Notes: a model not told the origin generated them from the letters alone. A DNA stretch of 64,000 nucleotides from Thermoplasmatota archaeon (GCA_035526765.1 DATLBS010000014.1:15612-79611); one strand, 5' to 3'; positions 41,462 through 58,399 are shown, counted from the stretch's first letter. Made by a program: numbers and translations.

Positions 41462-41505
41462 GTTGATTCGTCCACTCCAGGAGGCACGCGGCACACCCGA
41501 GGGAC

Positions 41506-41515
41506 ATAGATAAAG
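41506..41515 (-). promoter_or_regulatory. TATA-like box (CTTTATCTAT on minus strand) for the giant gene, in a divergent intergenic region shared with polB
   Basis: It is the only AT-rich octamer in a GC-rich spacer, and its position relative to the GTG start is appropriate. Confidence 0.3.
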
Positions 41516-41732
41516 GATATCTGGAAGCCTGGAAGCCGGGACGGTCGGATGGCCGCACTGCGCAGGCGCGCCCGTTTGGGGTAGCCACGGAGCGCACGGA
41601 AAACACGGAGGGCTTCGCTGTCGTGCGCAGGCCACGCTCCGTGGACTCCGTTCCCTCCGTGGCTTGCCGTGACCATGGAACATCCTGGCCGTTGGCCCAA
41701 ACCCCTAAGCCCGTCGGCCAACTCGCCGCGGC

Positions 41733-44700
41733 GTGTCGGTCCTGCTCAGCCTCTCGAACAGCCACCTGTTCTGGCAGGGGCGGGAGCCGGAGCCCATCGA
41801 GAAGCACCATCGCCCCTTCTTCCTCGCGTTCCCGCAAGACCCCCATGAGCCCATCGGCAAGGCGCATGCCAGGCTGGTGGCGTTGGTGGGTGCCGCGCAG
41901 GGGAGGTCGCCGGACGAGGACCCCTTGGCCAAGGCGCTGGAGGTGCACGAGCCCATCCAGTACAGGTCGTTCTGGAACCATGGCCAGCACCGCATGGCGA
42001 TCCCCGTGGTGGCGCGGCGGCCCTTCTGGATCCCGGACATCTCGGAGGCCCTGTTCTTCACGCATGGCTTCTACACCTGCGAGCACGACATCCCGTACAC
42101 GGAGCGCGCCAACGCCGACCTCGCGGCGGAGAAGGGCTGGTGGCTGCTGGACACGCGCGGGCAGCCCAACAAGCTCAACGTGATGACGTACGACATCGAG
42201 ACGACGCAGTACGGCAAGGGCCCGGCGCCTCCCTTGCCCACGCGTCCTGGCGCGGCGGCCCCCTCCATCCCCATCGACATCATCGGCTATTCCCACTTCG
42301 ACCTCGAGTACTCCGCCGCCAAGGACCTCGACACGGAGCAGTTCGACTTCCAGTTCCGCCACCTCCCCAACGACTGGGCCGAGCGCGAGGTCGTGCAGCT
42401 CACCTCCCGCAACCTGGACGAGGAGCTGGACCACCTGCAGCAGTTCACGGAGCATGCCGTGAAGCAGGACATCATCGCGGGCCACAACATCCTGGGCTTC
42501 GACAACAAGCAGATCCACGACCGTCTGGTGGAGTTGCTGCAGAAGGACCAGCGGCGGCAGACCCTGTCACCGAAGATGCGCGAATGGTTCCAGCGCTTCA
42601 CGAACGTCCACAGCCGTCCCGACCGCAGTTTCCATTTCGGCACGAGCCAGGACATCGCGACGTGGCACCCCATCACGCTGGACACGTTCCACGCGGCGCG
42701 CAAGTTCTTCTTCTTCCACGACGACTTCACCCTGAAGGGCCTTGCCCCTTGGCTGGGCATCAACGTCCCCGATCGCCTTTACCTCGAATCGCACGAGATG
42801 GGGCTCGACGCCAAGACGCTGCTGTACAACAAGCACGACGTCCAGGAGCAGATGGGCATCACGCAGATGCTCATCGCGCAGGCGCTCCCCCTCTGCTTCA
42901 CCGTCAACCTCCCGCTCGACGACCTGCTGACCGGGGGCAACACGAAGATGTGGGACCACATGGCCTTCATCCGCGCCCGCCGCCAGAGGCGCTTCATGCC
43001 GGCGACCTCCCGCGCCCAGGCCATCGCGCGCGCCGTGCAGCGCGTGCTGCCGCGCACGCCGTTCCCCACGCGCGAGCAGGTGAGCGAGGCGGTGCGCCAG
43101 CTGCCGCCCGAGGAGCGGGCCACGAGCGCGAACAAGGAGATCGTGCGCGTCGCGAAGCAGGGACCCGAGATGCCGTTCTGGTGCGAGCACCCGGGCGTCA
43201 TCGTGAAGGCGGACCCCACGACGTCGGGTGACCCCGATGACCCGAACGGCTACGCCATCCCCGGAGGCATGACGCTCAAGCCCGACTCGGAGCTCAAGTC
43301 CCACTTCGTGCCGTGGTACCACGTGGTCGCGGCGGACGTGGGCGCCATGTACCCGACGATCCTCAAGGCCCGCAACCTCACGGCCGACACGGTGCGGCCG
43401 GCGCGGGCGGGGGAGACGCCGGACGACTGGATCTGGCTGTTCGAGCTGGACGAGGTGTTCGCCAGCAGTGGGAGATACGTCGTCAAGAAGGCGGATGCGG
43501 CGGACAAGTTCACGAAGGGCAAGGGATGGCTCATCGGCGTCAAGCACTCGGGCGAGCCAGGCATGGTCAACCTCGCGATGACGGGCATCCTGAGCACCAT
43601 CCAGAAAGTGAAGGACGAACGTGCCCGGGCCAAGAAGGAAGGTCGCCCGAAGGACGCCATCCGCATCCTCGACATGACGTACCAGAGCCTGAAAGCGGCC
43701 CGCAACGCCGGCACGCACGGCATCCTCGTCGCCGTCAACGTCTCCTGCCGCCAGTTCAACGTGTGGGGCGGCGCCAACATCACGACGATCGGCCAGAAGA
43801 TCCTGCACGACACCCTCACCGATTGGGAAGGCCAGGGCATCCGCGTGGTCTACGGCGACACGGACGGCATCTACATGGGCTGCAGCAAATCGGCGGGGAA
43901 CATCCCCCACTTCGCCGAGGCGCTGGGCGCCGACGTGGAGCCGCAGGCGGACAAGTGGATCACGATGCCGGACCAGGCCCTCGCGGCGGTGGCGGCGGCG
44001 AACAAGAAGTGGCGCGACGAACTGCAGTACGAGGGGTTCGAGCTGGAGGCGGAGACGCATGACGCCATGGTCTTCGTCGTGCACAAGAACTACCTCATCT
44101 TCGACGCCAACCCCAAGGGCGACGGCATCCTCCTCGAGACGAAGGGGAACAACTTCAAGGCCTCCGACAAGGCGCCCTTGACGCAGGAGGTCATGCGCAA
44201 CATCATGGCCCGGGCGCTGCGGGAGGTCAGTGCCTGGGACTCGGAGGAGAAGGCGCGCGAGGCCATGAAGACCGCCATCAAGAAGGCGACGCGCGAGGTG
44301 ATGGGGACCATCCAGGTCGCGAAGACCGAGCGGCGTGACCTCATCCTGCGCCAGTCCGTGGGCTCCATCAAGAGCTACGAGCCGAACCCCGACGGCACCC
44401 TCCGGAGCCAGGCCGTCCGCACCGCCGCGCTGGAGGACCTGCTGGGAGAGCCGATCACCTCCACGCGCAAGATGCGCTTCATCGTCTGCAAGACCCCTCT
44501 GCCCCTGTACACGAGCCCCGACCGGCAGCAGGCCAAGCAGCAGGAGCTGGCCCGCAGCGGCCACCAATTGGTCGTGAAGGAGCCGAAGAACCGCGGCCTC
44601 AAGCCCATCGAGTACATGTGGCCCGTCGAAAGGGTCGACCCCGCCGCCATCGACTGGGTGTGGTACAAGTCCATGGTGGAGGACTACGTGAAGGGGGCGT

Positions 44701-44756
44701 TCGGGTTCGATTCCCTGGAGCTCGTGGTGCAGCGGGACCTGTCGAGCTGGTTCTGA
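41733..44756 (+). CDS. polB: Family B DNA polymerase, divergent
   Basis: Exo I MTYDIETTQYG. Exo II IAGHNILGFDNKQI. Exo III LLYNKHDVQE. Pol motif A VVAADVGAMYPTIL. Motif C VYGDTDGIYMG. Motif B region atypical (LKAARNAGTHGIL). Confidence 0.8.
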   Translation: MSVLLSLSNSHLFWQGREPEPIEKHHRPFFLAFPQDPHEPIGKAHARLVALVGAAQGRSPDEDPLAKALEVHEPIQYRSFWNHGQHRMAIPVVARRPFWIPDISEALFFTHGFYTCEHDIPYTERANADLAAEKGWWLLDTRGQPNKLNVMTYDIETTQYGKGPAPPLPTRPGAAAPSIPIDIIGYSHFDLEYSAAKDLDTEQFDFQFRHLPNDWAEREVVQLTSRNLDEELDHLQQFTEHAVKQDIIAGHNILGFDNKQIHDRLVELLQKDQRRQTLSPKMREWFQRFTNVHSRPDRSFHFGTSQDIATWHPITLDTFHAARKFFFFHDDFTLKGLAPWLGINVPDRLYLESHEMGLDAKTLLYNKHDVQEQMGITQMLIAQALPLCFTVNLPLDDLLTGGNTKMWDHMAFIRARRQRRFMPATSRAQAIARAVQRVLPRTPFPTREQVSEAVRQLPPEERATSANKEIVRVAKQGPEMPFWCEHPGVIVKADPTTSGDPDDPNGYAIPGGMTLKPDSELKSHFVPWYHVVAADVGAMYPTILKARNLTADTVRPARAGETPDDWIWLFELDEVFASSGRYVVKKADAADKFTKGKGWLIGVKHSGEPGMVNLAMTGILSTIQKVKDERARAKKEGRPKDAIRILDMTYQSLKAARNAGTHGILVAVNVSCRQFNVWGGANITTIGQKILHDTLTDWEGQGIRVVYGDTDGIYMGCSKSAGNIPHFAEALGADVEPQADKWITMPDQALAAVAAANKKWRDELQYEGFELEAETHDAMVFVVHKNYLIFDANPKGDGILLETKGNNFKASDKAPLTQEVMRNIMARALREVSAWDSEEKAREAMKTAIKKATREVMGTIQVAKTERRDLILRQSVGSIKSYEPNPDGTLRSQAVRTAALEDLLGEPITSTRKMRFIVCKTPLPLYTSPDRQQAKQQELARSGHQLVVKEPKNRGLKPIEYMWPVERVDPAAIDWVWYKSMVEDYVKGAFGFDSLELVVQRDLSSWF

Positions 44757-44772
44757 GCTTCGGCGCCCAACC

Positions 44773-44970
44773 GAACCACAGATTCCACGGATTTCACAGA
44801 CCCATGTTCTCAGGCCGTCATGCGCTCCGCGTTCAATTCTGGACCGATTCCAGTCCAACACCCCTGTGACGGCGGGGGCGTCGAACACCAGAAGCGAGCC
44901 GTGCTGGCCGTGCCACGCGCCGCCGTCGGAGGCGCCGGTAAACCAGAGCCTGTACCAACACGCGATGCCC
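44773..44970. repeat. Composite intergenic repeat 3' of polB: CACAGAT-array module, then GCGCTCCGCGTTCAATTCTGGA module, then GTGCTGGCCGTGCCACGCG module
   Basis: Shares modules with 21791, 63800-63915, 8914 and 33613-33860. Confidence 0.55.
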
Positions 44971-45061
44971 AGACTGCGTGCCGCAACACGTTGTCGGTGA
45001 CCCAGATGGCTTTGGCGTCGCATCCCGGCAACCTCAAGTGCAAGCACCCACGCTTCCCCGC

Positions 45062-45403
45062 ATGCGCTGGTCCTGGCCCTCGTGGCTTGCCATCATCTTC
45101 GGCGCCCTGCTGGCCGTGGCTGCCTTCTGGCTCACCAACGACCAGCACGATGTCGCCTACCTCACGGGCCTCCTCATCCCGGGGGCTATCCTCATGGGTG
45201 CTGGCCTCCACGCCCTGCAGGCCAGCTACGATTCCTGGTGCGGCGACGACTGCTACGGGTACGGTGGCGGTTCGTGCGGGTGCGACCACTGCGGCGACTG
45301 CTCGGGCGGCGACTGTTGCGGCCACTGCGGCTGCAGCAACATGCGCACGGACGGGCAGGGGCACGACGGCCACGGCCACGACCACGGCGAGCACAGCCAC
45401 TGA
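45062..45403 (+). CDS. Small membrane protein with Cys/Gly-rich and His/Asp-rich (metal-binding-like) C-terminal tail
   Basis: MRWSWPSWLAIIFGALLAVAAFWL... two TM helices. CGDDCYGYGGGSCGCDHCGDCSGGDCCGHCGC....GQGHDGHGHDHGEHSH. Confidence 0.5.
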   Translation: MRWSWPSWLAIIFGALLAVAAFWLTNDQHDVAYLTGLLIPGAILMGAGLHALQASYDSWCGDDCYGYGGGSCGCDHCGDCSGGDCCGHCGCSNMRTDGQGHDGHGHDHGEHSH

Positions 45404-45600
45404 TGCGCATCCTCTGGGCCGTCCTGGCCGCCGTCGTGGTCGTGGCGATGAGCGTCTACCTGTCCTCCGCGTACCGCAACCCCATGTACGCCGTCCTGGG
45501 CCTCGCCGCTGGACTCGTCGTGGTCATCGGGGGCCTTGCCAGCATGATGGTCAAGCGCCGGTCGGGGCCGCCCCCCTCATCCCCGCCCCCGCCCACCTGA
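45403..45600 (+). CDS. Small membrane protein (65 aa), TGATG-coupled to the previous gene
   Basis: MRILWAVLAAVVVVAMSVYLSSAYRNPMYAVLGLAAGLVVVIGGLASMM. Confidence 0.4.
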   Translation: MRILWAVLAAVVVVAMSVYLSSAYRNPMYAVLGLAAGLVVVIGGLASMMVKRRSGPPPSSPPPPT

Positions 45601-45680
45601 CCGTCGAGGCCTTCAGCGATGCGGGAAGCCGCAAAGCCAAAGCACGGCCGCAGGCCTCGCCCCGCGTGAAGCATTGGCTG

Positions 45681-46139
45681 ATGAAGTCCGAGCCCGAGTC
45701 GTACTCCATCGACGACCTGGCGCGCGACGGCACGACCGACTGGACCGGCGTCCGGAACTTCAAGGCCCGCAACTGGATGAAGGAGATGCAGGTCGGCGAC
45801 AAGGTCCTCTTCTACCACAGCAACGCCGATCCTCCCGGCGCCGCCGGTGTGGCCGAGGTCTGCGCAGTGGCCCACGCCGACCGCACCCAGTACGATGCCA
45901 GATCGGACTACTTCGAGCCCAAGGCCACCCCGGAGAAGCCGTACTGGTACTGCCCGGACATCAGGTTCGTGGCGAAGTTCACCCGCTTCGTCCCTCTGCA
46001 GGAATTGCGCGACAGCGATGCGCTGAACGGCATGCTGCTCACGTCCGGCAAGGCGTCACGCCTTTCGGTGCAGCCGGTGGACAAGAAGCACTTCGATGCG
46101 ATCGTCAAGATGGGCAGCAAGGTTTCGCCCCCCACGTAA
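45681..46139 (+). CDS. EVE (PUA-like) domain protein
   Basis: HWLMKSEPESYSIDDL..WTGVRNFKARNWMKEMQVGDKVLFYHSN.. is the typical EVE/Thy1-like fold signature. Confidence 0.7.
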   Translation: MKSEPESYSIDDLARDGTTDWTGVRNFKARNWMKEMQVGDKVLFYHSNADPPGAAGVAEVCAVAHADRTQYDARSDYFEPKATPEKPYWYCPDIRFVAKFTRFVPLQELRDSDALNGMLLTSGKASRLSVQPVDKKHFDAIVKMGSKVSPPT

Positions 46140-46391: not shown

Positions 46392-46907
46392 ATGCGGTTC
46401 TTCGGAGTTGATCCCATGAAACCCCAAAAACACCCCCGAACAGCAGACATCGCCCGACTTGTCGCGCGAGCGTCCGATGCGAACCGGCCCCAATTGGAAG
46501 CCCACATCGAATGGAACCGGGGCCAGAACCAAATGAGCGAGAACGGCGTGTACAGTTTTGCGCGCCCCATCGTCCACGCGGACTCGATCCTGGAAGGCAA
46601 GCCCTTCCACACGACAAAAACCCAGGACTGGCTCAAGGTGGTCTCCGTGTTCCGGACCATCTACAGCCCCCACAGCCTCCGGATCAGGGTCGTGAATCTG
46701 CGAAAACATGTGCGGTACTGCTTCGACGTGGACGACCTGGAAAAAGCCGAGGAGTTGGGCAAGAAAGAGGGCCGCGCCATGGAGAAGGCCCTTTGGGTCA
46801 AGCGCGAGAAGCCTCAGGTCGTGGGCCAAGTCATCCTGGAAACGGACGTGGATGCCATGCTGGCGGCAATCGCGGCGCGCAACAGCCTAGGGGGCAAAAC
46901 CAGATGA
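46392..46907 (+). CDS. Hypothetical protein (island cargo)
   Basis: ORF in the lower-GC region. No motifs recognised. Confidence 0.4.
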   Translation: MRFFGVDPMKPQKHPRTADIARLVARASDANRPQLEAHIEWNRGQNQMSENGVYSFARPIVHADSILEGKPFHTTKTQDWLKVVSVFRTIYSPHSLRIRVVNLRKHVRYCFDVDDLEKAEELGKKEGRAMEKALWVKREKPQVVGQVILETDVDAMLAAIAARNSLGGKTR

Positions 46908-47297
46908 TTTCTGCACGTTCTTGTTCAAATTTCCGGGTGCGTAACGATTACACAATTGCCTGTTCCAGTGTATTGCCACTGGGGACTCGTCGGAACCCAT
47001 ACGGCCGCCCCAGTCTTGTGGGCATCATTGTATGGACGGACCAAATTGAAGGTGAGCGGGTAAGAGTCAGTGCCGTCCGGGGACATCGCGCATGGACCAA
47101 AAGAAAGGCAAGCTGGGGAATCCTCCGGACAAATGGCCACTTCGCGGATTTCGACCGGGGGCGGGGGTAGACCTGGCAAGGGTTGAGCGTTGGCCGGAGA
47201 CATGCAAAACAGCATGGCGAGAAGGCAACATAGAATTCCTAGAGGGGTTCCGTTTGGCATAGAGTTCAGTTTCCTTGGGATGTTTTTTTGGAGATTG

Positions 47298-48152
47298 TCA
47301 CGGCAAATCCATGATGACTTTGAGCGTTGCAATGGTGGTCTCAGTTGTTTGGGATCCTGCTCCGTAGTCAGCCACCGCCCCTACCATCCCGCCGTGTATC
47401 GTTAGTGGCCCGATTGTTCCTACGAACGTCAGAATCTCGTAGAATGTTTCGTTGAGCCAAGCATGTCGGGTGCCGTCGCTTTGGTGCCATCGGCCGCCGG
47501 TTATGGCGTTCCCCTGCGGAGGGCTTGTCTCTCCTGCCCCAATGAAATCATACAGGACGTCATCTTGGGTTGCCACGTGGTATTGCAGAGTTTGCCCAGT
47601 CACGGCGCCTTCCACGGTCCCCAGCCGAGCATGGAAGCCTGCTTTTTGGAACAAGGAGACCATTGATTGGTTTGCAGCAATCAATTCCAGGAGATAGAAG
47701 TCGCCTCGATTCGGGTCATGAGATTGCACGTCGGCCGGAACTTTTGCGGGCGCCGTCAAGGTTGCGTACCTAATGTCGTGAAGCACTTCCAGGCTGTCGA
47801 CCACCCCGGTGTCACAAAGGAAAATGCTGAAGTGGGCGAGTTCTAGATTCCCAGCCACGGGATCTGGCCGGTATCCATCTGGAAGCTGGGCCTTCATCTT
47901 GTCCGCGTCCGCGGCCAGGCTAGTGTAGTAGGCTTGGCAGCCGTTCATTTCCAGCTTCTTCGGGGATGCAGCAAGAACAAGGTTGCAAGCCGTGGAATTC
48001 TGCTTGCAAGAGTCAGGCGTCGATGTGGTGTCAAGCGTGGCTGTCGTCGAGGCGGTGCCGGAAGAGGTTGTGATTGGATTGTTGGTTCGTGAGCCGCAAC
48101 CTGCTAAGGAAAGCATGAGGACCAGGATGCAAGGGATCCAAGCAGTGCGCAT
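47298..48152 (-). CDS. Lipoprotein, hypothetical (island cargo)
   Basis: MRTAWIPCILVLMLSLAGCGS lipobox. Thr/Ser-rich linker. Abuts the upstream regulator gene. Confidence 0.55.
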   Translation of the reverse strand: MRTAWIPCILVLMLSLAGCGSRTNNPITTSSGTASTTATLDTTSTPDSCKQNSTACNLVLAASPKKLEMNGCQAYYTSLAADADKMKAQLPDGYRPDPVAGNLELAHFSIFLCDTGVVDSLEVLHDIRYATLTAPAKVPADVQSHDPNRGDFYLLELIAANQSMVSLFQKAGFHARLGTVEGAVTGQTLQYHVATQDDVLYDFIGAGETSPPQGNAITGGRWHQSDGTRHAWLNETFYEILTFVGTIGPLTIHGGMVGAVADYGAGSQTTETTIATLKVIMDLP

Positions 48153-48153
48153 G

Positions 48154-49839
48154 TTATGCATCTCCAGGATGTGTGGTCCTACTTTGCGTTTCCGGGGTTC
48201 GAATCCAGGGTAGCGCAATGGAAGCCGGATTGCTCGGGCCAGCCAATCGGGGGTGCAGCGCCCAGAGCGTGGTGCGGCCGGTGCGCGAACGCAGCAAGAC
48301 TCCATCGGCTTCCATCCGGCGCATGTGGTACGAGAAAAGGCTAGTTTTCGGCACGGGACTCCCGTGCAAGCCCAATGCCTTGCGAATCGAATCCGCGTCC
48401 ATCGGCGTGGCGGCTTGGCCTAGGATTTCGATGATGCTCTTGCGGATGGGGTGGCGCGAATCGGCCAGGGCATTCTGCACAATCCTATCAGATGCCCCCA
48501 GGGGGTAAGCGGGCTCGAAGTGTTGGCGGTGGCCGTGCGAATACACTTTGATGAGATCCGCGTCCGCAAGGATCTGGGCATGGAAATTGAGTGAAGAACG
48601 ACGCAAGCCCACGGTCTGCATTAGCTGCGGGGCGCCAATTCCGGGAACTTCCCGGATTAGTTTCAGCAGCTGGACGCGCGTGGGGTGTTCCAGGGGTTGG
48701 GCACGAGAATTTCTTAGCAGGAAAAACCGGATTCCCTTCGCAACGCTCGACGAGGAGGCAACAAGCCATGCAAGTAGACTGAAGCCGGCAAGGGCTCCTA
48801 GGGCCGGCAGCCATTCCCGAGTGCCAAAGACTGCCACCCCATCAATTCCAAGGTAGCTCGCTTCGCCATCCAATTTCCACTGGCTGCTGGGCGCCCCATA
48901 CCTGCCTTGGAACTTGAAGTCGCCAATGGTTTGAACAAGACCCAATTCTTTGTTCACGAATCGGGCGTCGACGCTCGTGCTCCCAACGTCAGCAAAGGCG
49001 ATGTCGCCGTCGTAATGACCCTCAAGGGATTCAAGAAGAGGATTCCAAAGACCGCCGCGGTCTTGTTGAAGATGAATCGCCGTTGAGGGGGCCGTGATGA
49101 GCACGGCAATACGGTCGTAGTATCCCGTCGTGGAATAGCCCAAGGGGTCGCTGAACTCTGTGCCCTGGTGGGGATAGATTCCGGTGTGGATAACGCGATC
49201 CCCACCCAGGGCAACGGATGACCCATACGCAAGAATCGCGAATTCCCCAGTGTATGACCGGGTATCGGCTTGTTCGTGATTCCAGCGGCCCGCTTGCTCG
49301 TAAGGGGCATAGTGGCGAGGCGCTTCATTGGTGCCTTGCAGTGTAAATTCATAGCGGTGATCTGGAATCTCAATCGACTGCTTCCCGGTCTCATCAAGCT
49401 GCAATCGGATGGCTTGATGCTCAGTCGGGGGGAGGAAACGAACGGCCGAAATGATTTGCTCGTTCCGGATCTCAACGGTACCAGTAAAAGCAAAGTCTTC
49501 GTTCTTCTGTTCCGGAGGCTCAGGGGCGTACGCAGCCCCTTGGCCCACGGGGCTCTCTCTGCTTGTTCTGGCCTTGGCCAGAGGATCCGAAAGAATTTGG
49601 ATGTGGGCGCCCGTAACGGAAAAATTGGCTGTGATGTTTCCTGAGTGCCAGAAGGATTCGAAGGCGATGCCGGCCAAGTTCGCGAGGCCCTGGTACCGGC
49701 CGTTCAAAGCAAGCGTGCCTGAGGAAACGATGTCGCCTGAAACATGGGTCGTATCAGGAGGCTTGGCGATGGCGGCCGGCAAGAAAGCCAGGATGCAGCA
49801 CGCCGCCGCAGCGACAATCTGAACCCTGCTTCCGGACAT
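48154..49839 (-). CDS. Membrane-tethered one-component regulator: signal peptide, extracellular domain, single TM, cytoplasmic tandem winged-helix domains
   Basis: Signal peptide MSGSRVQIVAAAACCILAFLPAAIA. TM helix LPALGALAGFSLLAWLVASS. C-terminal LIREVPGIGAPQLMQTVGLRRSSLNFHAQILADADLI plus a second wHTH. The cytoplasmic part is homologous to 28522-29070. Confidence 0.65.
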   Translation of the reverse strand: MSGSRVQIVAAAACCILAFLPAAIAKPPDTTHVSGDIVSSGTLALNGRYQGLANLAGIAFESFWHSGNITANFSVTGAHIQILSDPLAKARTSRESPVGQGAAYAPEPPEQKNEDFAFTGTVEIRNEQIISAVRFLPPTEHQAIRLQLDETGKQSIEIPDHRYEFTLQGTNEAPRHYAPYEQAGRWNHEQADTRSYTGEFAILAYGSSVALGGDRVIHTGIYPHQGTEFSDPLGYSTTGYYDRIAVLITAPSTAIHLQQDRGGLWNPLLESLEGHYDGDIAFADVGSTSVDARFVNKELGLVQTIGDFKFQGRYGAPSSQWKLDGEASYLGIDGVAVFGTREWLPALGALAGFSLLAWLVASSSSVAKGIRFFLLRNSRAQPLEHPTRVQLLKLIREVPGIGAPQLMQTVGLRRSSLNFHAQILADADLIKVYSHGHRQHFEPAYPLGASDRIVQNALADSRHPIRKSIIEILGQAATPMDADSIRKALGLHGSPVPKTSLFSYHMRRMEADGVLLRSRTGRTTLWALHPRLAGPSNPASIALPWIRTPETQSRTTHPGDA

Positions 49840-50001
49840 CGCGGCAACCACTCGCGTGTCCCTATAAATCTCTTGGCGCAGCGTTTGCTGGATTGTTCCA
49901 ATCAACGTTACACAGTTGATGATATACCCTGACTCCATCGCCGCGTTTCATATGGTTACGTCCGCGCCCTTCGCTTTGGTTCCCCTTCCACAGGAGGAAC
50001 G

Positions 50002-50613
50002 ATGAACGTCTGGTGGATGCTCTGCCTGGCGGGTGCCACCTGCGGGGCGGTGTTCGTCGCCTCGCATCTTCTTGGTCCCTATTTTCGGTGGTGGCGAGAG
50101 CAACCCCGCGAAACCCCCTTGGAACGCCGCCAACGCCGGCTCGCGAACGCCGTCGAGAACTCCTTCGGAGCAGCCGCGGACGGGCACCCCTGGGATGCCC
50201 GTTGGTGGGGTGCCAAGGCATGCCGCTTGGACCCGCGCGCACCATCGGCCATGCATTCGCTTGGACACGCCTGGATGCTCTGCAACCGACCCGTCCTGGC
50301 GTTGAAGCACCTTGAGCGCGCCGTCGTCTTGTTGGACGAGGGTGTGTGCGCGGATGACCCAATGGAGCTCACGGCGGAGATTGCCGTCGATGCCAGCCGA
50401 TGCTGCGCCATGCTCCGTCTCGATTGCACCGACCCTGTGGAGAAAGAACAGTGGGGGGAGGGCGTGCTGCGCTGGGCCCGCGTTGCCATCGAATCGAAAC
50501 CTGACGTGGCCCAGGAACTCCGTTCCAACCACTACTTGCGGGATCTAGAATCCGCGATCCACGTCCTGTTGACCAGCCTTGACTCCAAGGCGCAACCCCT
50601 GGGGATCCGCTAA
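50002..50613 (+). CDS. N-terminally anchored helical-repeat (TPR-like) protein
   Basis: MNVWWMLCLAGATCGAVFVASHLL TM anchor. Helical repeats follow. Confidence 0.4.
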   Translation: MNVWWMLCLAGATCGAVFVASHLLGPYFRWWREQPRETPLERRQRRLANAVENSFGAAADGHPWDARWWGAKACRLDPRAPSAMHSLGHAWMLCNRPVLALKHLERAVVLLDEGVCADDPMELTAEIAVDASRCCAMLRLDCTDPVEKEQWGEGVLRWARVAIESKPDVAQELRSNHYLRDLESAIHVLLTSLDSKAQPLGIR

Positions 50614-50875
50614 TGCTTGCGCCTCTGCTTTTCCACGCGTCACCTCAAAACGGGAAACCCTCGGGTTCGGGGCTGCCGCCGAGCAAACGCGTGGAATGTG
50701 TGTCATGTTGCTCGCGTGGCAGCCCCGTTTTCCTCTCTAATCCCCAACTTGCAACTGGCAATCCCATGCCAAGAGCCCACCGTCAATTTGAATCTATGAA
50801 ACCGGCACCCGCATCGTCATCCCCATCTCGCCGGGTCCTCTTCCCCATCCCAAAACATCAGGAGATTGACCACCC

Positions 50876-53800
50876 TTGACATTGAATTTTGCCGCTTCGA
50901 AGAAATCCCCGTTGCCTTTCTTGGTGGCGGCCCTCCTGGTCGCTGGGGCCTTCGCGCACGGGGTGGGTGCCCAATCGGATCCGCCCATCAATTGCCAAGC
51001 ACTCGTGATCGGCCCGATTCCCGACGTCGGGCCAATCCCTTTGCCGCTAGTCCCTGGCGGGGGGATTCCCAAGCTGGGCCCGTGCACCGCTTTCCAACTT
51101 TTCAACACCTTCGTGCAAAAGGACCAGAACCGTGACGGCGCCGGCGACGATTGGCAGAAATCCTACGACCTCGACGTCCTGGGCGGCGACACGGATCACG
51201 ACGGCTTGACGGACCTGAACGAGTACAAGTGGCTCTCCAATCCCATCGTCGCAGACAGCGATGCGGATGGTTGGCAGGATGGGCCCGAAGCTTCTTACTG
51301 GAGCAAGATGGCCAGATCGGAAGCCAATCCCCCACCCGTTGCAGGGTACGCCGTTGCCGGACCCGGATCCCAACTCGATACCGACGGCGACCATGTGCCC
51401 AACATCATGGACGCAGATTCCGACAACGATGGACTGCTGGATGGAGCGGAGAGCAATATCTACCACACGGACCCCGCGGTGGCCGACACGGACCAGGACG
51501 GCATCCTGGACGGAGGAGTCACACCCCTTGGTGCCCCTCACATCAATGGAGAAGTCCATGACTACGGCACCAATCCAGTCCAAGGCGATTCCGACGGGGA
51601 CGGCTTGGAGGATGCCCAAGAAATCCAGTACTGGCAAAGCCGCGGCAACCTGACCACCGGTGCCAACCGCGTGGACACGGACCATGACGGACTATGGAAC
51701 GCCGTCGACCTGGACTCCGACAACGACGGATTGAGCGACGGCGAAGAAGTCACAACCTATCACAGCGACCCAACGTTGAGCGACACGGATGGCGACTCGA
51801 TGCCCGACGCCTGGGAGGCCCACCACAGCTTGGACCCAGCAAGTGCGGCGGATGCAAACCTCGACGCCGACGGTGATGAACTCGCGAATGTGGCCGAGTA
51901 CCAAGCCGACACGGATCCCCATGACATGGACACCGACAACGACCTCCTGCTGGACGGCGAGGAAGTCAACACGTACCACACCAATCCCTTGAACGGGGAT
52001 TCGGATTCGGACGGGATGCCGGATCGTTTCGAGATCCAGCACGGCCTGCTCCCTCTGGACGCAACGGATGCCGTAGCCGACCCGGATGGGGACTCCTTCG
52101 ACCAAGGCGCGGACGGCAGCATCGAACAAGCCTGGCCCAACCTCGCTGAATACCAGTACGGCCGCCCCATCGGATACTCAGAGGCCGCCTCCGGCCCGTG
52201 GTTGGCTGGCACGGATCCCCACAAGGCTGACACCGACGGCGACGGCGCTCCCGACGGTTACGAGGCATACTATGGAACGAACCCTGTCCTTCCTGCGGAT
52301 GGCAGCACCGATGAGGACAAGGATGGCCTCAACTTCACGCAAGAAGTACGCCACGGCACCGACCCAGGCGACCCCGACACCGATGGCGACGGGTTGTGCG
52401 ATGGCGGACGCGCCGCCAATTGCTTCTTCCCGGGGCTGGGCACCACAGGCTTCCAGCCGGGAGAATCCGATTACGGCTCCGTGCCTTGGATGACGGATTC
52501 GGATGGCGATGGCATCCCCGATGGCCAGGAAGCCCAGAAATGGGACCCGAGCGCCACCGGCCGCGCCCAAGACCTCGACCACGACTCCTTGGGCGGGATC
52601 ATCGACTCTGACAGTGACGGCGACGGGCTGGCGGATGGCTCCGAGATTGTATATCATGCCGACATGGCTGTGTCCGATTCCGACCAGGACGGCCTCAATG
52701 ACGGCCCCGAGGTCAACACTTGGGCCACTAGTCCCACTAGCACGGATAGCGACCAGGACGGCCTCTTGGATGGAGCGGAAGCCATGGCCCACCACACGGA
52801 TCCCGCTGTGGCGGATTCGGATGGGGATGGGGTTGGCGACGGCCAAGAAGTCAACAGGTTGGGAACCGACCCGTTGAGCGCGGATACCGATCAGGATCAT
52901 CTGCCGGATGGTTGGGAAGCCGCGGAAGGCACGCAGCCTCGCGTTTCAGATGCGGGCCAGGACATCGACATCGATGGCCTCTCCAACGCCTATGAATTCA
53001 TCATTGGCACCCACCCAAACTCGAAGGATTCCGATGGAGACGGTATGCCTGACACTTACGAGGACACCTACCTTCTGGACCCCGCACACGACACCGCCGC
53101 CGGTGACGCAGATGGGGACGGGCTTGCCAACCTGGACGAGTACGCCCAAGGCACGAATCCGTTGGTGGTCGACAGCGATGGCGACGGCATCGACGACGGT
53201 CCCGAAATCCACTTGCACCAAACGAATCCATTGATGAATGACACCGACAACGATGGCCTGGGGGACGGCGTCGAGTTGGCGGCGTGGAACATGCTTGGCT
53301 CCTCGGCATGGAACACCAACTATGATGGCGACACGTTTGCCAACAACCTCCTCGACTCGGACTCCGATGGGGACCAGCTCTCTGATGGGTACGAGTTCGT
53401 CACCAGCCACACCGACCCCAAGGACACGGATTCCGATGGCGACGGCTTGACCGACTACCAAGAGGTCTTCGTGTACCAGGGCCAATACGACCCCAACAAG
53501 GCCGACACCGATGGCGACGGCCAAAGTGACGGCGTCGAGGTCGCCTTGGCGGACACCAATGGGGATGCCGACAAGGACGGCATCAAGAACGGCGACGAGG
53601 GCTCGGTCTACGGCACCGATCCAACCGTCGCGGATACGGATTGCGATGGCATCAACGACGGCCCCGAGCTTGCCTATTGGGGAGCAACGTGGAGTATGGG
53701 CGGGAACCGGTTGAGGCAAGGCGACGTCGATGGAGACACGTTGAAGGACGGCCTCGAGATTGCGTCCATGGATGCCCCTGGGGGCACCTTCACGCGCACC

Positions 53801-55744
53801 TTGCCCGACAAGGCGGACAGCGACAACGATCTTTTGGGGGACGCCGTGGAGGCCCAGAACAATGCCCGCGTCACCTGCGGCACCAGCAGCCAACGATTGG
53901 GCCCCGTCAACCCTCTGGGAGGCTTGAACGTGGTCGAGGTCGCCAACAACGCTGCAGCACTTGCCACGTTGGGTCCGGGGGTCTATTATCGGGGGCCGGA
54001 TGGCAATGTGTACGCCAAGGACCTCAACGGGCTCTTTGTCCAGGGCGGCTACGGCATCCACCTCTACCTGAACTTGCCCGGCAAGTCCGCGAACCCGTTG
54101 AGTCAACTCAGCGTCAAGCCAAGCTCAGCCACGTATGCGTCCATGTCGCCGGGCACGAACGGCAAACGGACCGACCCCTTGAAGCCGGACACGGATGGCG
54201 ATGGATTGCTGGATGGCGTCGAGATCACGGCGTCGTTGAATCCGTTTTCTGGGCCTCCATTGGATCCAACGTTGTGCGATACGGACCATGATGGGCTTGG
54301 TGATGGCTTGGAGTTGGGCCTGACTTTGGGGGTGCCTGTCCAGAATGGAGCCGACCCCTCCTGCAATCAACGTGACATGGATCCCGCCACGAAGACCGAC
54401 CCGAACAACCCTGACACGGATGGGGATGGCGCAACGGATGGTCGTCCTGCGCAGGCCAGGGGTCAGGCGTTCGAGGACGGGAACGGCAATGGCCGCTTGG
54501 ATGGTGCCACGAGTGGATATTGTGGCATCCCGGGCGCCGAATCGGATCCCCAGGACGCCGACACTGACGATGATGGGATCAGTGATGGCGCTGAAATCCT
54601 AGGGAGCTTGGGTGGCATCCAAACCAGCCCGTATTGCTTCGATTTGGATGGGGATGGCCTCTCGGATGGTTTGGAGCAGGGCCTGGGGCCTGGCCAATTC
54701 GTGCCGGCCACGACTAGTGGTGGGGTTCTTGTGCAAGGCACCAATCCCGCTCACACCGTGTCCATGGGAAGCTTCGCGTGGCCGACTTGGCAAGCCTGGT
54801 CGGGAACCACCGACTCGGCAAGCCGAAAAATCACGACGCTTGTGGATGATGGCGATTCTGACAATGATGGCGTCATCGATGGCCTAGAGGATTTGAACCA
54901 TAACGGCAAGTTCGGAACCACGGATAGCGCAGAATTGGATGCCAAGAGTCCTGACACGGATGGCGACGGTTTGGCGGATGGCTTGGAGTTGATGATTTGG
55001 GGTTCGACCAGCAATCCCAATTTCACGCCTTACACGTTCCCGGATGCCGTGGCCCAGTGGCACGCGGTGTCCTTGCTGGATGTGAAGCAGAAGCTGCAAT
55101 GGAATCCCGCCAACAAACTCCAAACGGATCCCCGCAACGCGAATACGGACGGCACGGACCTCATTCCGGACGGCCTGGACGTGAATCCCTTGGGGGACGC
55201 CAAGATGACGTTGACATTCGGCTTCTTCCAGATGTTGGAGAAACCCGATGCCGACTGTCCGTGGTGCGAAGACGGTTGGGCGCCTGACGTAAAAATCAGC
55301 TTGTTGGCCACTCTTCCATCGAATGTCGGTTTCACTGCAAACACCATTGAATTGGATCTTCCTCGTGCCAAAGAAGGATTCGACTTAGGTGGTTGGCTTA
55401 ACGCGCATGCGAACTTTGTGACGGATACGGGTTCGCCATCAGGCGTGATGGGATTGGTTTGGACAGGGGGCCGAGTCTTGATGGATCTCTATGACTCTGT
55501 TGATCAATTCCCAACGACATCCGCCTGCAAAGACGCCGTCTGTTTGAGCCTGCATTTCCGGGAAATTGATGACGCACCCTTCGAACCGGATTCGAATGAC
55601 AATGATGTTGATTTTGAACCCTGCAGACGGCCGAACATACTATGGGCAAAACAGCATCCAAGACGAGCCCATTGGCTTTGCCGCGAGCCCCTGTGCCAGC
55701 GGCTTGCCAAGAATCGAGATGCGTGGTGTCGGCGATCCGAATGA
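50876..55744 (+). CDS. Giant (1622+ aa) secreted protein with dozens of thrombospondin-type-3-like Ca-binding repeats (DxDxDGxxDxxE); probable frameshift near 55620, with the reading frame continuing to 55889
   Basis: Signal peptide (TTG start) MTLNFAASKKSPLPFLVAALLVAGAFAHG. Repeats DTDHDGLTDLNE, DSDADGWQDGPE, DSDNDGLLDGAE, DTDQDGILDG, DSDGDGLEDAQE and so on throughout. The last 40 codons of this frame are Arg/Cys/Trp-rich junk, while the +1 frame (55566-55889) continues with protein-like sequence. Confidence 0.75.
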   Translation: MTLNFAASKKSPLPFLVAALLVAGAFAHGVGAQSDPPINCQALVIGPIPDVGPIPLPLVPGGGIPKLGPCTAFQLFNTFVQKDQNRDGAGDDWQKSYDLDVLGGDTDHDGLTDLNEYKWLSNPIVADSDADGWQDGPEASYWSKMARSEANPPPVAGYAVAGPGSQLDTDGDHVPNIMDADSDNDGLLDGAESNIYHTDPAVADTDQDGILDGGVTPLGAPHINGEVHDYGTNPVQGDSDGDGLEDAQEIQYWQSRGNLTTGANRVDTDHDGLWNAVDLDSDNDGLSDGEEVTTYHSDPTLSDTDGDSMPDAWEAHHSLDPASAADANLDADGDELANVAEYQADTDPHDMDTDNDLLLDGEEVNTYHTNPLNGDSDSDGMPDRFEIQHGLLPLDATDAVADPDGDSFDQGADGSIEQAWPNLAEYQYGRPIGYSEAASGPWLAGTDPHKADTDGDGAPDGYEAYYGTNPVLPADGSTDEDKDGLNFTQEVRHGTDPGDPDTDGDGLCDGGRAANCFFPGLGTTGFQPGESDYGSVPWMTDSDGDGIPDGQEAQKWDPSATGRAQDLDHDSLGGIIDSDSDGDGLADGSEIVYHADMAVSDSDQDGLNDGPEVNTWATSPTSTDSDQDGLLDGAEAMAHHTDPAVADSDGDGVGDGQEVNRLGTDPLSADTDQDHLPDGWEAAEGTQPRVSDAGQDIDIDGLSNAYEFIIGTHPNSKDSDGDGMPDTYEDTYLLDPAHDTAAGDADGDGLANLDEYAQGTNPLVVDSDGDGIDDGPEIHLHQTNPLMNDTDNDGLGDGVELAAWNMLGSSAWNTNYDGDTFANNLLDSDSDGDQLSDGYEFVTSHTDPKDTDSDGDGLTDYQEVFVYQGQYDPNKADTDGDGQSDGVEVALADTNGDADKDGIKNGDEGSVYGTDPTVADTDCDGINDGPELAYWGATWSMGGNRLRQGDVDGDTLKDGLEIASMDAPGGTFTRTLPDKADSDNDLLGDAVEAQNNARVTCGTSSQRLGPVNPLGGLNVVEVANNAAALATLGPGVYYRGPDGNVYAKDLNGLFVQGGYGIHLYLNLPGKSANPLSQLSVKPSSATYASMSPGTNGKRTDPLKPDTDGDGLLDGVEITASLNPFSGPPLDPTLCDTDHDGLGDGLELGLTLGVPVQNGADPSCNQRDMDPATKTDPNNPDTDGDGATDGRPAQARGQAFEDGNGNGRLDGATSGYCGIPGAESDPQDADTDDDGISDGAEILGSLGGIQTSPYCFDLDGDGLSDGLEQGLGPGQFVPATTSGGVLVQGTNPAHTVSMGSFAWPTWQAWSGTTDSASRKITTLVDDGDSDNDGVIDGLEDLNHNGKFGTTDSAELDAKSPDTDGDGLADGLELMIWGSTSNPNFTPYTFPDAVAQWHAVSLLDVKQKLQWNPANKLQTDPRNANTDGTDLIPDGLDVNPLGDAKMTLTFGFFQMLEKPDADCPWCEDGWAPDVKISLLATLPSNVGFTANTIELDLPRAKEGFDLGGWLNAHANFVTDTGSPSGVMGLVWTGGRVLMDLYDSVDQFPTTSACKDAVCLSLHFREIDDAPFEPDSNDNDVDFEPCRRPNILWAKQHPRRAHWLCREPLCQRLAKNRDAWCRRSE

Positions 55745-55889
55745 TGAGGACGGGCTACTGACCCTCACTCCGGATATCACAGTATTCGGGAATTTCCTGG
55801 ACAATGCCCGCGTCCACTCCGCCAACCCAAGCGGCGTTGTCATGCCCCCCACAACTAGCGTGCCGCGACAACTTGCTGGTGGCTGCTAA
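55566..55889 (+). other. Probable authentic C-terminal continuation of the giant repeat protein in the +1 frame (frameshift, pseudogene or sequencing indel), carrying the conserved LPRIEMRGVGDPNDEDGLLTLTPDITVFGNFLDNARVH module
   Basis: From about 55625 the sequence reads ADGRTYYGQNSIQDEPIGFAASPCASGLPRIEMRGVGDPNDEDGLLTLTPDITVFGNFLDNARVHSANPSG.., which matches the repeat-protein style (DPNDEDG). Confidence 0.5.
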
Positions 55890-56894
55890 ATGCGAACCAC
55901 TGGCGCGCATCGAACTCCGCAGTCCACTAGCGCGCCCTCTTCCCCCCCTTCTTCTCCTGATGCCCAGCCCCCAACATCATTCTCTGATCGGTTTGCTGCT
56001 CGAAACTTCAGGCAGGTAACACTCTTGTGTCTTGCCGCTTGGGTGCTTTTTCGGATATTCTACGCCCCCTTCGATGGTTGGATTCTAACGCACTCTGATT
56101 CGCCGCATCCGGGGTCAGGAATTCAGAACCCTGCCCTCCTGAGCCTGCATGGCGCTGGTTGGTTCTTCATTGGACTAGGCATCCTCTGGTGCGTTATTTC
56201 GGCCCGTCAGCGAGGCATCACCGATTCTGCATGGTTTGCATTTTTCTCCTTGGCGGCGGGGTTCATTGGCTTGACCTGGATGACGCCTGGCGTCTTGGAT
56301 GCTGAATATCGCAACGGCATCGGATTCAAGGTCGCAACAGAGTCCGGCCTGGTCCTTCTTGCCATCGTATTCCTGGTCACTCCTAGACTTCCCAGATTGG
56401 TGATGGGCACGGACCACACCTCACGCCCGCCAAGAATTGCCAAAGCGAAGTCGCTTCTGCCTGTATCATTGAGGGTTGAACTCTTGGTACTCTCCGCGGT
56501 CCTGTTGTGCGCGTGGGGCATCTCGGCATGGACTCTGCAACGAGAATGGCAGCCCAGTCAAGGATTTTCGACAAATGCGCTCTACGCAGCAGGATCGCCC
56601 CTGCCTTTTCTGGCTGCGAGTTTTGCGCTGATGCTGTTCCATCAATTTCCGATGACCCAGGTCGCGCGGCGCATTCTCTTCTGGCTCTTGATTCCACTGC
56701 AGGGCTTGGCACTCGTCTTGTTTTTGGTTTCCGGGCCCACTGCCCTCCTTGCGGGAGGGACGGATGCTCTATTGGTTGCAATGGTCTTGGTCCAGGCCGC
56801 GGCGCATGCCTGGTGGATATGGACGACAATTCATGTCTGCAGACCCCTATTTGGGTGGCGTGTCCACTGGCAGAGCCCTTCCCAAGGATTGTGA
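55890..56894 (+). CDS. Polytopic integral membrane protein (about 8 hydrophobic segments), hypothetical
   Basis: Segments LLCLAAWVLFRIFYAPF, WFFIGLGILWCVI, AWFAFFSLAAGFIGLTWM, LVLLAIVFLVT, LLVLSAVLLCAWGISAW, LPFLAASFALMLF, ILFWLLIPLQGLALVLFLV, LLVAMVLVQAAAHAWWIW. Flanked on both sides by copies of the 36-aa module. Confidence 0.6.
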   Translation: MRTTGAHRTPQSTSAPSSPPSSPDAQPPTSFSDRFAARNFRQVTLLCLAAWVLFRIFYAPFDGWILTHSDSPHPGSGIQNPALLSLHGAGWFFIGLGILWCVISARQRGITDSAWFAFFSLAAGFIGLTWMTPGVLDAEYRNGIGFKVATESGLVLLAIVFLVTPRLPRLVMGTDHTSRPPRIAKAKSLLPVSLRVELLVLSAVLLCAWGISAWTLQREWQPSQGFSTNALYAAGSPLPFLAASFALMLFHQFPMTQVARRILFWLLIPLQGLALVLFLVSGPTALLAGGTDALLVAMVLVQAAAHAWWIWTTIHVCRPLFGWRVHWQSPSQGL

Positions 56895-57424
56895 GCCCCG
56901 TTGGATTTACCGATGAACGAGTTTTGCTGACGTTGACGCCAAACATCGCGATCTTCGGGAACTTCCTTACGCAAGCGCGCGAGCACGGCATGCTACTCAA
57001 TTTTCTATCCGCACAATCGGGGTTGCCAAAAAAGGAATTGCGGGGGCCGATGAGACCGCGTCCTCGTTTCTACGGCCTGATTCTTTGTTTCGGCGTCCTT
57101 CTTGCGTTTGCCATTGTGTTTGGGAACACCTTTCTCCTTGCCATGAACCCATCTTTCGGCGGGGGTCACGTGCGGCACGCTATCTTGGTCATGGACCGGG
57201 GTGCCCTTGATAACCAGACGGCAAGAGCCCTACTGCCCCCAGCAGACTGGAACGCTTCCGGCAAAGTACAGACCAAACTGCTTGAGGTCATCTTCGCGGA
57301 CCCCACACAGATCGTCCTGGGTGATGTACCAGACCTGCCCAGGCAGGTTCTTGAGATCCCACGAACGGAAATCACATCCATCATCTGGATGGACGAGTCC
57401 GCCTTGTTCAAGACTGGCACGTAA
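56819..57424 (+). CDS. Small single-TM protein whose N-terminus carries the second copy of the conserved module (FPRIVSPVGFTDERVLLTLTPNIAIFGNFLTQAREH)
   Basis: Module conserved with synonymous DNA differences relative to 55704-55817, implying the frame is coding. TM FYGLILCFGVLLAFAIVFGNTFLLAM. The start is uncertain and the gene overlaps the 3' end of the upstream gene. Confidence 0.4.
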   Translation: MDDNSCLQTPIWVACPLAEPFPRIVSPVGFTDERVLLTLTPNIAIFGNFLTQAREHGMLLNFLSAQSGLPKKELRGPMRPRPRFYGLILCFGVLLAFAIVFGNTFLLAMNPSFGGGHVRHAILVMDRGALDNQTARALLPPADWNASGKVQTKLLEVIFADPTQIVLGDVPDLPRQVLEIPRTEITSIIWMDESALFKTGT

Positions 57425-58399
57425 GCGCCTAAGAGGTCTGGCGTCGGAGTAATACACCGGCCAAATGCCGGCGGTGCTCCGCTCCTGCTCCGCGCGCTGG
57501 CGCCCTGCGGTCGCCCGCCGCCTCCCACGACAAGAAGAATCCGGATGCTTAATGCCTGAACCGGCCCGGTGCGGTGTGCCGGACGCGGACGACCAATGAG
57601 GTTGGGTCGGGTCGACCCTGCTGCGGCATCTGGACAACGGCAAGTCGCCGTGCGGTGGGCTGGACGCCCGAACGACCCGATCCGCGGTTCCCGGAGCCTC
57701 GGGCGCCGCTTGGGGCGCCTAGGCTGTTGCAGGCGATGCTGTGATGCCTACGCCGCCCGGGACCGTGTACTGGCTGGATTGCCGGGAATTGAACTACTTG
57801 TACCGCACGGCCGCGTTTGAGGACCCGGTGCAGGCCATGGGGGCCTTCGGCGACCATGACCCTGCGCACCCCGGCAAGACCAGCCAGGCCATCAAGCACC
57901 CCCAAGGCATCGACTGGATCATCCTCGGGGGGAGCCTCCAGGAGCGGGCCAGACCCCGTTCCAACAATGGAGGTTTAGAGAGCCAGAATCGGACGCCCCC
58001 GATGAAAACGAAGAGGATGCTAAGGAGGCGGATTTAGGTGAATAGAAAACCGAGCGTCGGCGCCAGATCTACTTTGGGCGATTCACGAACACCCTTCCCA
58101 AACCTTGGCTGCACGCAGATTCTTGCACTTGTGTCCAACGGAGATCTTCGCCAATGCTCCGTTTGCCTGCGTACCCTTGCCTTCGCCCGTCCAGAATCAT
58201 GTACCCCTCTACGGGGGTACTGTCCAGGCCGGTCAAGGCCAGTACGCGACAAGGACAAGTCGGAACCCCCCAAAGCCCAGTTCCGAACCTCCCCCGCCCA
58301 ATTGGAAGGAGAGTATTTCCCCAAAGAGTGATTACCGGAGGGCACCGATTTGAAGGCCATCGGACGAACGGCTGGAGCGAAGCGGAACCCGGTGGGCCG

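Follow-up and report, generated by a model that had tools for sequence, protein, structure and literature searches.

A duplicated peptide module in a gene cassette of a giant TSP3-repeat protein and a putative eight-helix membrane partner from a Thermoplasmatota archaeon

In a 64,000-nt stretch of DNA from a Thermoplasmatota archaeon (GCA_035526765.1, DATLBS010000014.1:15612-79611; hereafter the window), the gene for a giant secreted protein built of calcium-binding TSP3 repeats is followed by the gene for a polytopic membrane protein with eight predicted transmembrane (TM) helices (the 8-TM protein) and by that for a small single-pass membrane protein. From gene order and sequence likeness we conclude that the giant and the 8-TM protein represent a conserved two-gene cassette, present in three other independent metagenomic lineages, and that a peptide module which recurs on the small protein belongs to the ancestral C-terminal tail of the giant. 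Uncultured archaea commonly have giant repeat adhesins, and those with neither a TM anchor nor a PGF-CTERM-type signal would need another means of staying on the cell. Our tentative preference, which we put a little short of an even chance, is that the 8-TM protein is the membrane partner (tether or maturation factor) of an anchorless giant, that the module is an integral part of that giant and that the small protein carries a captured copy of it. The features concerned are as follows.

50924-55744, plus strand: giant secreted TSP3-repeat (calcium-binding) protein HUR61669.1, 1606 aa as annotated, frame 2.
55616-55625, plus strand: putative +1 frameshift site (gaa ccc t gca gac), placed by a switch of codon-usage frame.
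55623-55889, plus strand: frame-0 continuation, the probable true C-terminus of the giant, 88 residues, ending ...PRQLAGGC and TAA.
55704-55817, plus strand: module copy 1 (LPRIEMRGVGDPNDEDGLLTLTPDITVFGNFLDNARVH), frame 0; core 55743-55817, probable extended module 55650-55817.
55890-56894, plus strand: 8-TM membrane protein, 334 aa, predicted N-in/C-in, of a tiny uncharacterised family; stop codon 56892-56894.
56813-57424, plus strand: small single-pass membrane protein HUR61670.1 with copy 2 at its N-terminus; TM segment at about 57074-57124.
56879-56986, plus strand: module copy 2 (FPRIVSPVGFTDERVLLTLTPNIAIFGNFLTQAREH), frame 2; probable extended module 56828-56986.

The eight helices of the membrane protein, proposed in the initial annotation, are supported by hydropathy and by an AlphaFold2 (AF2) model with eight long helices, and the charges of the loops predict that both termini lie inside. 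Word-indexed searches of 5.8 billion proteins with the 8-TM protein, the small protein and the frameshift-corrected C-terminus of the giant returned the query itself or nothing. An exhaustive phmmer search of 1.84 billion cluster representatives with the 8-TM protein identified three distant homologues, P0003 (E 1.6e-12), P0004 (E 2.8e-9) and P0005 (E 2.3e-4); P0006 is a close relative of P0004. Residues S85, H87, Y140, G225-F226, L238-P239, A259-R260, W265, P319 and G322 are invariant in the family, which shares an ungapped block (GF..8..G..LP...A...15...M...AR..L.W) and a conserved C-terminal P..G[WIF]. No Cys is conserved across the 4-member alignment. The block pattern had no match in metagenome and viral collections though all known loci fit it, and these collections evidently do not hold the contigs in question.

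The family could not be assigned to any known one. NCBIfam at E <= 1 assigned a family to neither the window protein nor any of the four family members. In Pfam, the window protein matched only COX8 at E <= 10, which is noise, and no match at E <= 0.01 was obtained for P0003, P0005 or the 8-TM open reading frame (ORF) of the locus L004 described below. The exosortase/archaeosortase, rhomboid, CPBP and O-antigen-ligase families, among which the initial annotation had proposed to look, gave nothing: no family member matched a Pfam or NCBIfam model for exosortase, archaeosortase, rhomboid/rhombosortase, CPBP or O-antigen ligase (Wzy_C). The protein likewise fell into no known transporter family. 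Neither a sequence-profile search of the PDB nor a Foldseek search against the PDB revealed anything significant for the 8-TM protein; the fold test was a weak one, made with a low-confidence AF2 model (predicted local distance difference test score, pLDDT, of 54 from the single sequence and 65 from a 4-sequence alignment). The 8-TM ORF also appears to be unannotated at NCBI, since the giant and the small protein have the consecutive tags VM286_04825 and VM286_04830 in the metagenome-assembled genome (MAG); the protein is known only from Logan gene calls.

At loci L002, L003, L004, L005 and L006, an 8-TM homologue was found directly downstream of an ORF with a related hydrophilic tail, for which the consensus is ...D.DED..L.L..GD.....YF..GL..AR.G..PP.G.C....C. 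L004, the sole locus long enough to show the entire upstream gene, has a 1885-aa giant (TSP3_bac, E 2.3e-60) that ends ...NEHDVDSILDLEIGDNVQSYFVSGLIAARSGTAPPPSGTCLGTLAGTPTCPSV; the upstream ORFs of L002 and L003 end ...GDGDEDVRVTLGAGDNIPLYFIQGLRDARAGGASPPMGFCPGMEVPSC and ...GDDDEDAALGLAGGDTAPTYLIGALRTMRDTGQPAGLSTLCYGTNPCT. At these three loci the tail is in frame with the upstream protein, and the tails are mutually homologous (E about 1e-8 to 1e-9, z 5-15). Every tail has a Cys within its last 4 residues, and the window tail ends in Cys like those of L002, L003 and L004. The true start of the membrane gene of L004 lies 4 nt past the stop codon of its giant. Because all three 8-TM homologues directly follow a tail-type gene, we conclude that the giant and the 8-TM protein form what gene order identifies as a conserved cassette, and this supports a functional coupling of the giant gene and the polytopic membrane gene. 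What lies beyond the 8-TM gene differs: a secreted PQQ-type beta-propeller in L004-L006 and a small two-TM protein in L003. Upstream of the L004 giant, at 830-2253 of that locus, are two response-regulator genes and a Roadblock/LC7 (MglB-like) gene, which may hint at control of the cassette by signal transduction or cell polarity.

The giant itself is a run of TSP3_bac repeats (PF18884, DxDxDGxxDxxE; Pfam E 2.5e-56), about 18 copies of which are visible in the gene at the DNA level; an alternative TTG start at 50876 would lengthen it to 1622 aa. The N-terminus of the window giant is signal-peptide-like, with a hydrophobic segment at residues 15-31, and the giants share such N-termini. Their tails (...ARVHSANPSGVVMPPTTSVPRQLAGGC, ...ARSGTAPPPSGTCLGTLAGTPTCPSV and others) are hydrophilic, with no TM segment and no basic sorting signal. 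The combination of a signal-peptide-like N-terminus with a tail that has no hydrophobic segment suggests that the giant has no anchor of its own.

Copy 1 had been described as standing at the real C-terminus of the giant. It lies in frame 0 and the annotated giant ORF in frame 2, so a frameshift is needed for copy 1 to be the C-terminus. A codon-usage log-odds profile was trained on the genes of the compositionally atypical island in which the cassette lies. The coding signal passes from frame 2 to frame 0 in scanning intervals that start at 55593-55611, that is, at about 55600-55625; the frame-0 score is positive to about 55820, just past the module, and over the last ~70 nt before the TAA at 55887-55889 the score is near or below zero in all frames. 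At the shift site frame 2 reads ...DVDFEP and frame 0 goes on ADGRTYYG..., and the junction SNDNDVDFEP/ADGRTYYGQNS is collinear with STDDVLDFNWNEGQDDFTQAS of the L004 giant. Past DVDFEP, the frame-2 text (CRRPNILWAKQHPRRAHWLCREPLCQ...) is rich in Cys, Trp and Arg and resembles out-of-frame sequence; the frame-0 text past the shift (ADGRTYYGQNSIQDEPIGF...) is protein-like. The last ~41 codons of the giant as annotated (55622-55744) thus appear to be out-of-frame read-out.

The comparison with L004 points the same way. The C-terminal region of the L004 giant aligns with the window giant (E 4e-37) up to nt 55330, beyond which 185 residues remain in the frame-corrected window protein and 187 in L004. 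The corrected tail is collinear with that of L004 from end to end (z 2.2), compared with z 0.7 for the uncorrected frame-2 tail. The window frame-0 tail, ...GDPNDEDGLLTLTPDITVFGNFLDNARVHSANPSGVVMPPTTSVPRQLAGGC, is laid out as an acidic TSP3-like loop, L.L, an aromatic/aliphatic stretch, AR, a Pro/Gly/Ser linker and the terminal Cys, and its TAA is followed immediately, with a gap of 0 nt, by the ATG of the membrane gene. The codon-frame switch, the synteny, the tail length and the shared terminal Cys lead us to conclude that copy 1 belongs to the predicted ancestral C-terminal tail of the giant. The original placement is accurate in this ancestral sense, and is not so for the annotated ORF, which ends in another frame. 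We also considered the module as the N-terminus of the 8-TM protein, read through the in-frame TAA at 55887, and rejected this because the other loci have tail and membrane gene in different frames and because the ATG of the membrane gene has a GGTGG of its own 7 nt upstream. A 29-nt direct repeat (79% identical, 53854-53882 and 55796-55824) joins AQNNARVTCG inside the giant with LDNARVHSA at the end of copy 1, by chance or as a trace of internal duplication.

The frameshift could be an error of sequencing or assembly, in which case a single ORF of ~1650-1670 aa would end at 55889; this would alter only the part of the argument that concerns the frameshift, and we regard it as rather unlikely. 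The coding signal downstream of the shift is intact, and deleting one base of the gaaCCCt run (C3) or of the TTTT (T4) just upstream, within 55612-55621, joins the frames. These homopolymers are, however, very short, and an identical 1606-aa product is found in the NCBI MAG record and in an independent Logan assembly of SRR8554898, which makes an assembler artefact unlikely, though both may share reads. Nothing supports +1 recoding at CCC-U: RNA structure downstream of the shift site is nothing unusual (z -1.2).

The two module copies translate exactly as first described, at 55704-55817 and 56879-56986. In a six-frame tblastn of the whole window they are each other's sole credible match (E 8e-8), the next match having an E of only 0.1. 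Within the core (DE..LLTLTP.I..FGNFL..AR.H), 17/25 residues are identical, and a degenerate DNA pattern of the core matches exactly two sites in the window, namely both copies (expected 0 from 100 shuffles). Likeness at the DNA level is limited to one 14-bp stretch. Over the 25 core codons, identity is 17/25 at the first, 21/25 at the second and 8/25 at the third position, and the proportion of nonsynonymous differences (pN) is 0.24 against a saturated proportion of synonymous differences (pS) of 0.83 (Fisher p 6e-6). These values indicate that both copies are maintained at the protein level, in these frames, as had been proposed from their synonymous divergence; the codons that had been quoted for LTLTP in copy 2 were incorrect, and are ctgacgttgacgcca, not ttgacgttgacgcca.

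In an anchored alignment the likeness extends ~20 residues upstream of the module (NS....PI..A.P.A...PRI), and 7/5000 shuffles attain the observed score of this extension; the full module is therefore probably about 56 aa long. The first half of copy 1 resembles a degenerate TSP3 calcium loop, its NDEDGLL matching the SDNDGLL/SDQDGLL repeats inside the giant. Copy 1 holds more of the family consensus (DED, D) than copy 2, in which the calcium-loop residues DPNDEDG have decayed to FTDERV. Scans of GTDB genomes with the module pattern and profile yielded only one chance off-frame match, in a Chloroflexia MAG, and scans of viral contigs and JGI metagenome contigs yielded no match; across these collections the module was not found apart from the membrane protein.

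Copy 2 had been said to sit just past the end of the membrane gene. In fact it starts 16 nt before the stop codon of that gene (frame 0), and the extended copy overlaps the last 64 nt in the other frame. For the small protein, NCBI uses GTG 56813 (203 aa), with ATG 56819 possible, and Prodigal uses GTG 56891 (177 aa, GTGA overlap); the extended module likeness favours the longer version. Some 64-82 nt within 56813-56894 appear to be dual-coding, for the C-terminal tail of the 8-TM protein in frame 0 and for the extended module of the small protein in frame 2. The frame-0 side of this stretch, RPLFGW..W.S..QG, is shared with P0003 and P0005. At L002, the called downstream ORF overlaps the 3' end of the membrane gene by 47 nt.

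The small protein is an orphan, without a match to any Pfam or NCBIfam model, to any PHROG model (this was also the case for the 8-TM protein) or, itself excepted, to any of 5.8e9 proteins. Its derivation as a truncated paralogue of the 8-TM protein was ruled out (hhalign P 0.23). Compared with the other loci, both window copies have the same 3-residue deletion; they are mutually closest, and at no other locus was a second tail copy found, so that a module bracketing the membrane gene does not hold as a general arrangement. Copy 2 is, on this sequence evidence, a lineage-specific duplication of ~110-170 nt of the 3' end of the giant gene, and is apparently under purifying selection since the duplication. 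The flanks of the TM segment carry net charges of +4 on the N side and +1 on the C side, from which the positive-inside rule predicts a cytoplasmic N-terminus, and with it a cytoplasmic copy 2. Since the giant's tail would lie outside, the two copies are unlikely to be equivalent ligands of one site.

Copy 2 could accordingly be a by-product, that is, a fragment of the giant's 3' end that was captured by the neighbouring gene and gives that gene's product a generic folded N-terminal extension, functionally unconnected to either the giant or the 8-TM protein. The restriction of copy 2, and of the entire small protein, to the window lineage is consistent with this, as are the differing genes downstream of the 8-TM gene elsewhere and the degraded calcium loop. 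The strong purifying selection since the duplication is not what would be expected of such a fragment, however, and nor is its retention in the same operon with translational overlap with the 8-TM gene. We consider a by-product unlikely.

The reading that we favour is of an adhesin with a dedicated membrane partner. The giant would be secreted by a Sec-type route with no membrane anchor of its own, and the 8-TM protein would bind its C-terminal region, retaining the giant at the surface, or would mature or insert that end. The module would be an integral part of the C-terminal region, made of a terminal TSP3-like half-repeat and two beta-strand-like segments, and would not be a cleavable sorting signal. 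The small protein, as an adaptor or regulator, would probably re-use the module to interact with the same partner or complex. This re-use is the weakest step, given the predicted cytoplasmic location of copy 2.

Several observations weigh against a dedicated partnership of this kind. The giant's tail is out of frame in this genome, and the giant as annotated would lack the module. The window module resembles the tails of the other loci weakly (hhalign P 0.018), and a hidden Markov model (HMM) built from the three other tails misses the window copies. The predicted cytoplasmic copy 2 faces away from the tail of an exported giant, which would be extracellular. Invariant positions of the 8-TM family occur on both faces of the membrane and do not single out an extracellular binding surface, and the AF2 model of this protein is of low confidence (pLDDT 65), with no fold match. 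The known loci number five (four lineages), two of them being fragments of 1.3-1.7 kb. Contact between the tail and the 8-TM protein is hypothetical, as is the role of the latter.

A bolder form of the same idea is that the locus represents an unrecognised archaeal surface-anchoring system, in which a TSP3 giant is tethered through its Cys-terminated tail to an 8-TM protein of a new family and the copy on the small protein may substitute for or compete with that tail. We think this improbable. If it were true, a giant with its tail frameshifted off could have the missing terminal strands provided in trans by the small protein, and the proportion of adhesin that is anchored or released could be set by a +1 shift of low efficiency at CCC-U.

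The initial annotation compared the locus with sortase systems, and the 8-TM protein could indeed be an intramembrane transpeptidase or protease that cleaves the tail and attaches the giant, as well as the small protein, to a lipid or the wall, possibly via the terminal Cys. Its gene strictly adjoins a tail-type gene at every locus, the invariant polar S85-x-H87 and [DE]-Y140 lie near the predicted outer face, and every tail has its Cys close to the end. Like the archaeosortase/PGF-CTERM and exosortase/PEP-CTERM systems, the cassette links a conserved C-terminal region of large surface proteins to a dedicated protein of about eight TM helices. The likeness ends there. Four 8-TM members match no exosortase, archaeosortase, rhombosortase, CPBP or other NCBIfam or Pfam model (E <= 1-10), and the window protein has neither sequence nor profile likeness to any such model and no sequence or fold match in the PDB. 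No Cys is conserved in the 8-TM family. Known C-terminal sorting signals are defined by a signature motif, a TM helix and a basic cluster, which the tail does not have, in agreement with the earlier remark that the module is not a classical tripartite signal. One client is apparent per locus, against many per genome in the known systems; the count for this genome covers the 64-kb window, which holds two module copies, and the second of these is N-terminal and probably cytoplasmic, a misfit for a C-terminal cleavage signal. What is left of the analogy is the dedicated genetic link between the C-terminus of a giant and a polytopic protein, and a sortase-like enzyme seems to us quite improbable.

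Other known systems share some traits with the locus. The Myxococcus proteins CglD, MtsC and MtsD have the same TSP3_bac calcium-binding repeats as the giant, and CglD (NF033765, an equivalog model) is its best NCBIfam match. However, the score (256 bits) is below the 400-bit cutoff and the likeness is confined to the repeats; the window giant comes from an archaeal host and has no MYXO-CTERM, and its non-repeat C-terminal region and 8-TM partner are unrelated to the Glt or Mts machinery. Dockerin-cohesin pairs, which had been put forward as an equal possibility, resemble the module in being short, starting with a calcium-loop-like DxNxDG and occurring twice in the locus, and such a module could dock proteins. 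Neither the frame-0 ORF nor the small protein had a Pfam dockerin match at E <= 10, and no cohesin-like protein is encoded in the operon; as candidate receptor the cassette would offer a polytopic membrane protein in place of a beta-sandwich cohesin, and two different proteins carry the copies, probably on opposite membrane sides. LapA-type RTX adhesins are likewise giant calcium-binding repeat proteins that rely on neighbouring membrane components and hold retention or export information in terminal non-repeat regions. The window system differs in having no genes for an ABC transporter, membrane fusion protein (MFP) or TolC, in its N-terminal Sec-type signal and in its archaeal monoderm host. 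The thrombospondin-type genes of Ca. Poseidoniales (Thermoplasmatota), whose products are inferred to be secreted and to act in adhesion (PMC6461757), come from the same phylum and have the same repeat type; neither a conserved membrane partner nor a duplicated tail module is described in that paper.

That the giant simply ends at 55744, the module being the N-terminus of two paralogous small proteins (a 56-97-aa frame-0 ORF ending at 55889 and the 177-203-aa protein), is very doubtful. Two gene callers do end the giant there, the module alignment places ATG 55719 exactly opposite GTG 56891, and more in-frame ATGs stand at 55596-55605. Against this, the frame-0 coding signal starts at ~55600, exactly where frame 2 loses its own, and the frame-2 tail has the richness in Cys, Trp and Arg that is usual in out-of-frame text. 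L004, L002 and L003 have the equivalent tail in frame with the upstream protein, the tail length fits L004 only once the frame is corrected, and the candidate small ORFs are absent as called proteins from databases.

The island that holds the cassette is listed here with its extent.

~46400-57500 (~11 kb), no strand assigned: compositionally atypical island, recognised by GC and by GC at third codon positions (GC3).

The window encodes the archaeal markers L21e, RpoF, S3ae and RadA. The island has a GC of 55-62% compared with 67-70% in its flanks, and a GC3 of 0.63-0.77 compared with ~0.9 or more in most host genes. It is strongly supported that the giant, the 8-TM protein and the small protein form a three-gene operon in this low-GC3 island, the other genes of which are orphans and an ArsR-type helix-turn-helix (HTH) protein. 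An independent 12.7-kb Logan contig (~46067-58727) matches the island almost exactly, and this extent suggests that the island is flexible and varies between strains. No integrase or tRNA was found to mark its edges, and no convincing att-like repeats flank it; a phage origin was rejected (no PHROG matches).

The HTH protein (48154-49938, minus strand, 594 aa, C-terminal ArsR/HTH_20) overlaps an ORF of ~290-330 aa with weak lipoprotein-like matches (47298-48305, minus strand). Both are island orphans divergent from the cassette, and the HTH protein is a possible local regulator. Upstream of the island, 36767-46139 includes a 1638-aa minus-strand ORF with HHH_5 and zinc-ribbon matches, a 1007-aa family-B DNA polymerase that is very divergent, with weak Pfam scores, and an EVE-domain protein of 439 aa. 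Such a replication/repair neighbourhood is unusual and might itself be part of a mobile element.

Thrombospondin-type adhesion genes in Thermoplasmatota were already known (PMC6461757), as was C-terminal sorting logic. What is new is the small 8-TM family with its strict link to a particular giant-adhesin tail, together with the duplicated module on a neighbouring membrane protein and a gene structure that is frameshifted and partly unannotated. Current annotation appears to miss the 8-TM gene, and also what is probably the true 3' end of the gene for the giant. With five loci in the public data searched, the family is extremely rare, and its general impact will be limited unless wider relatives are found. 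Within it, the duplicated module pinpoints a likely interaction element, and the cassette of giant and 8-TM protein puts forward a specific protein, open to test, that may tether or mature the giant independently of a sortase.

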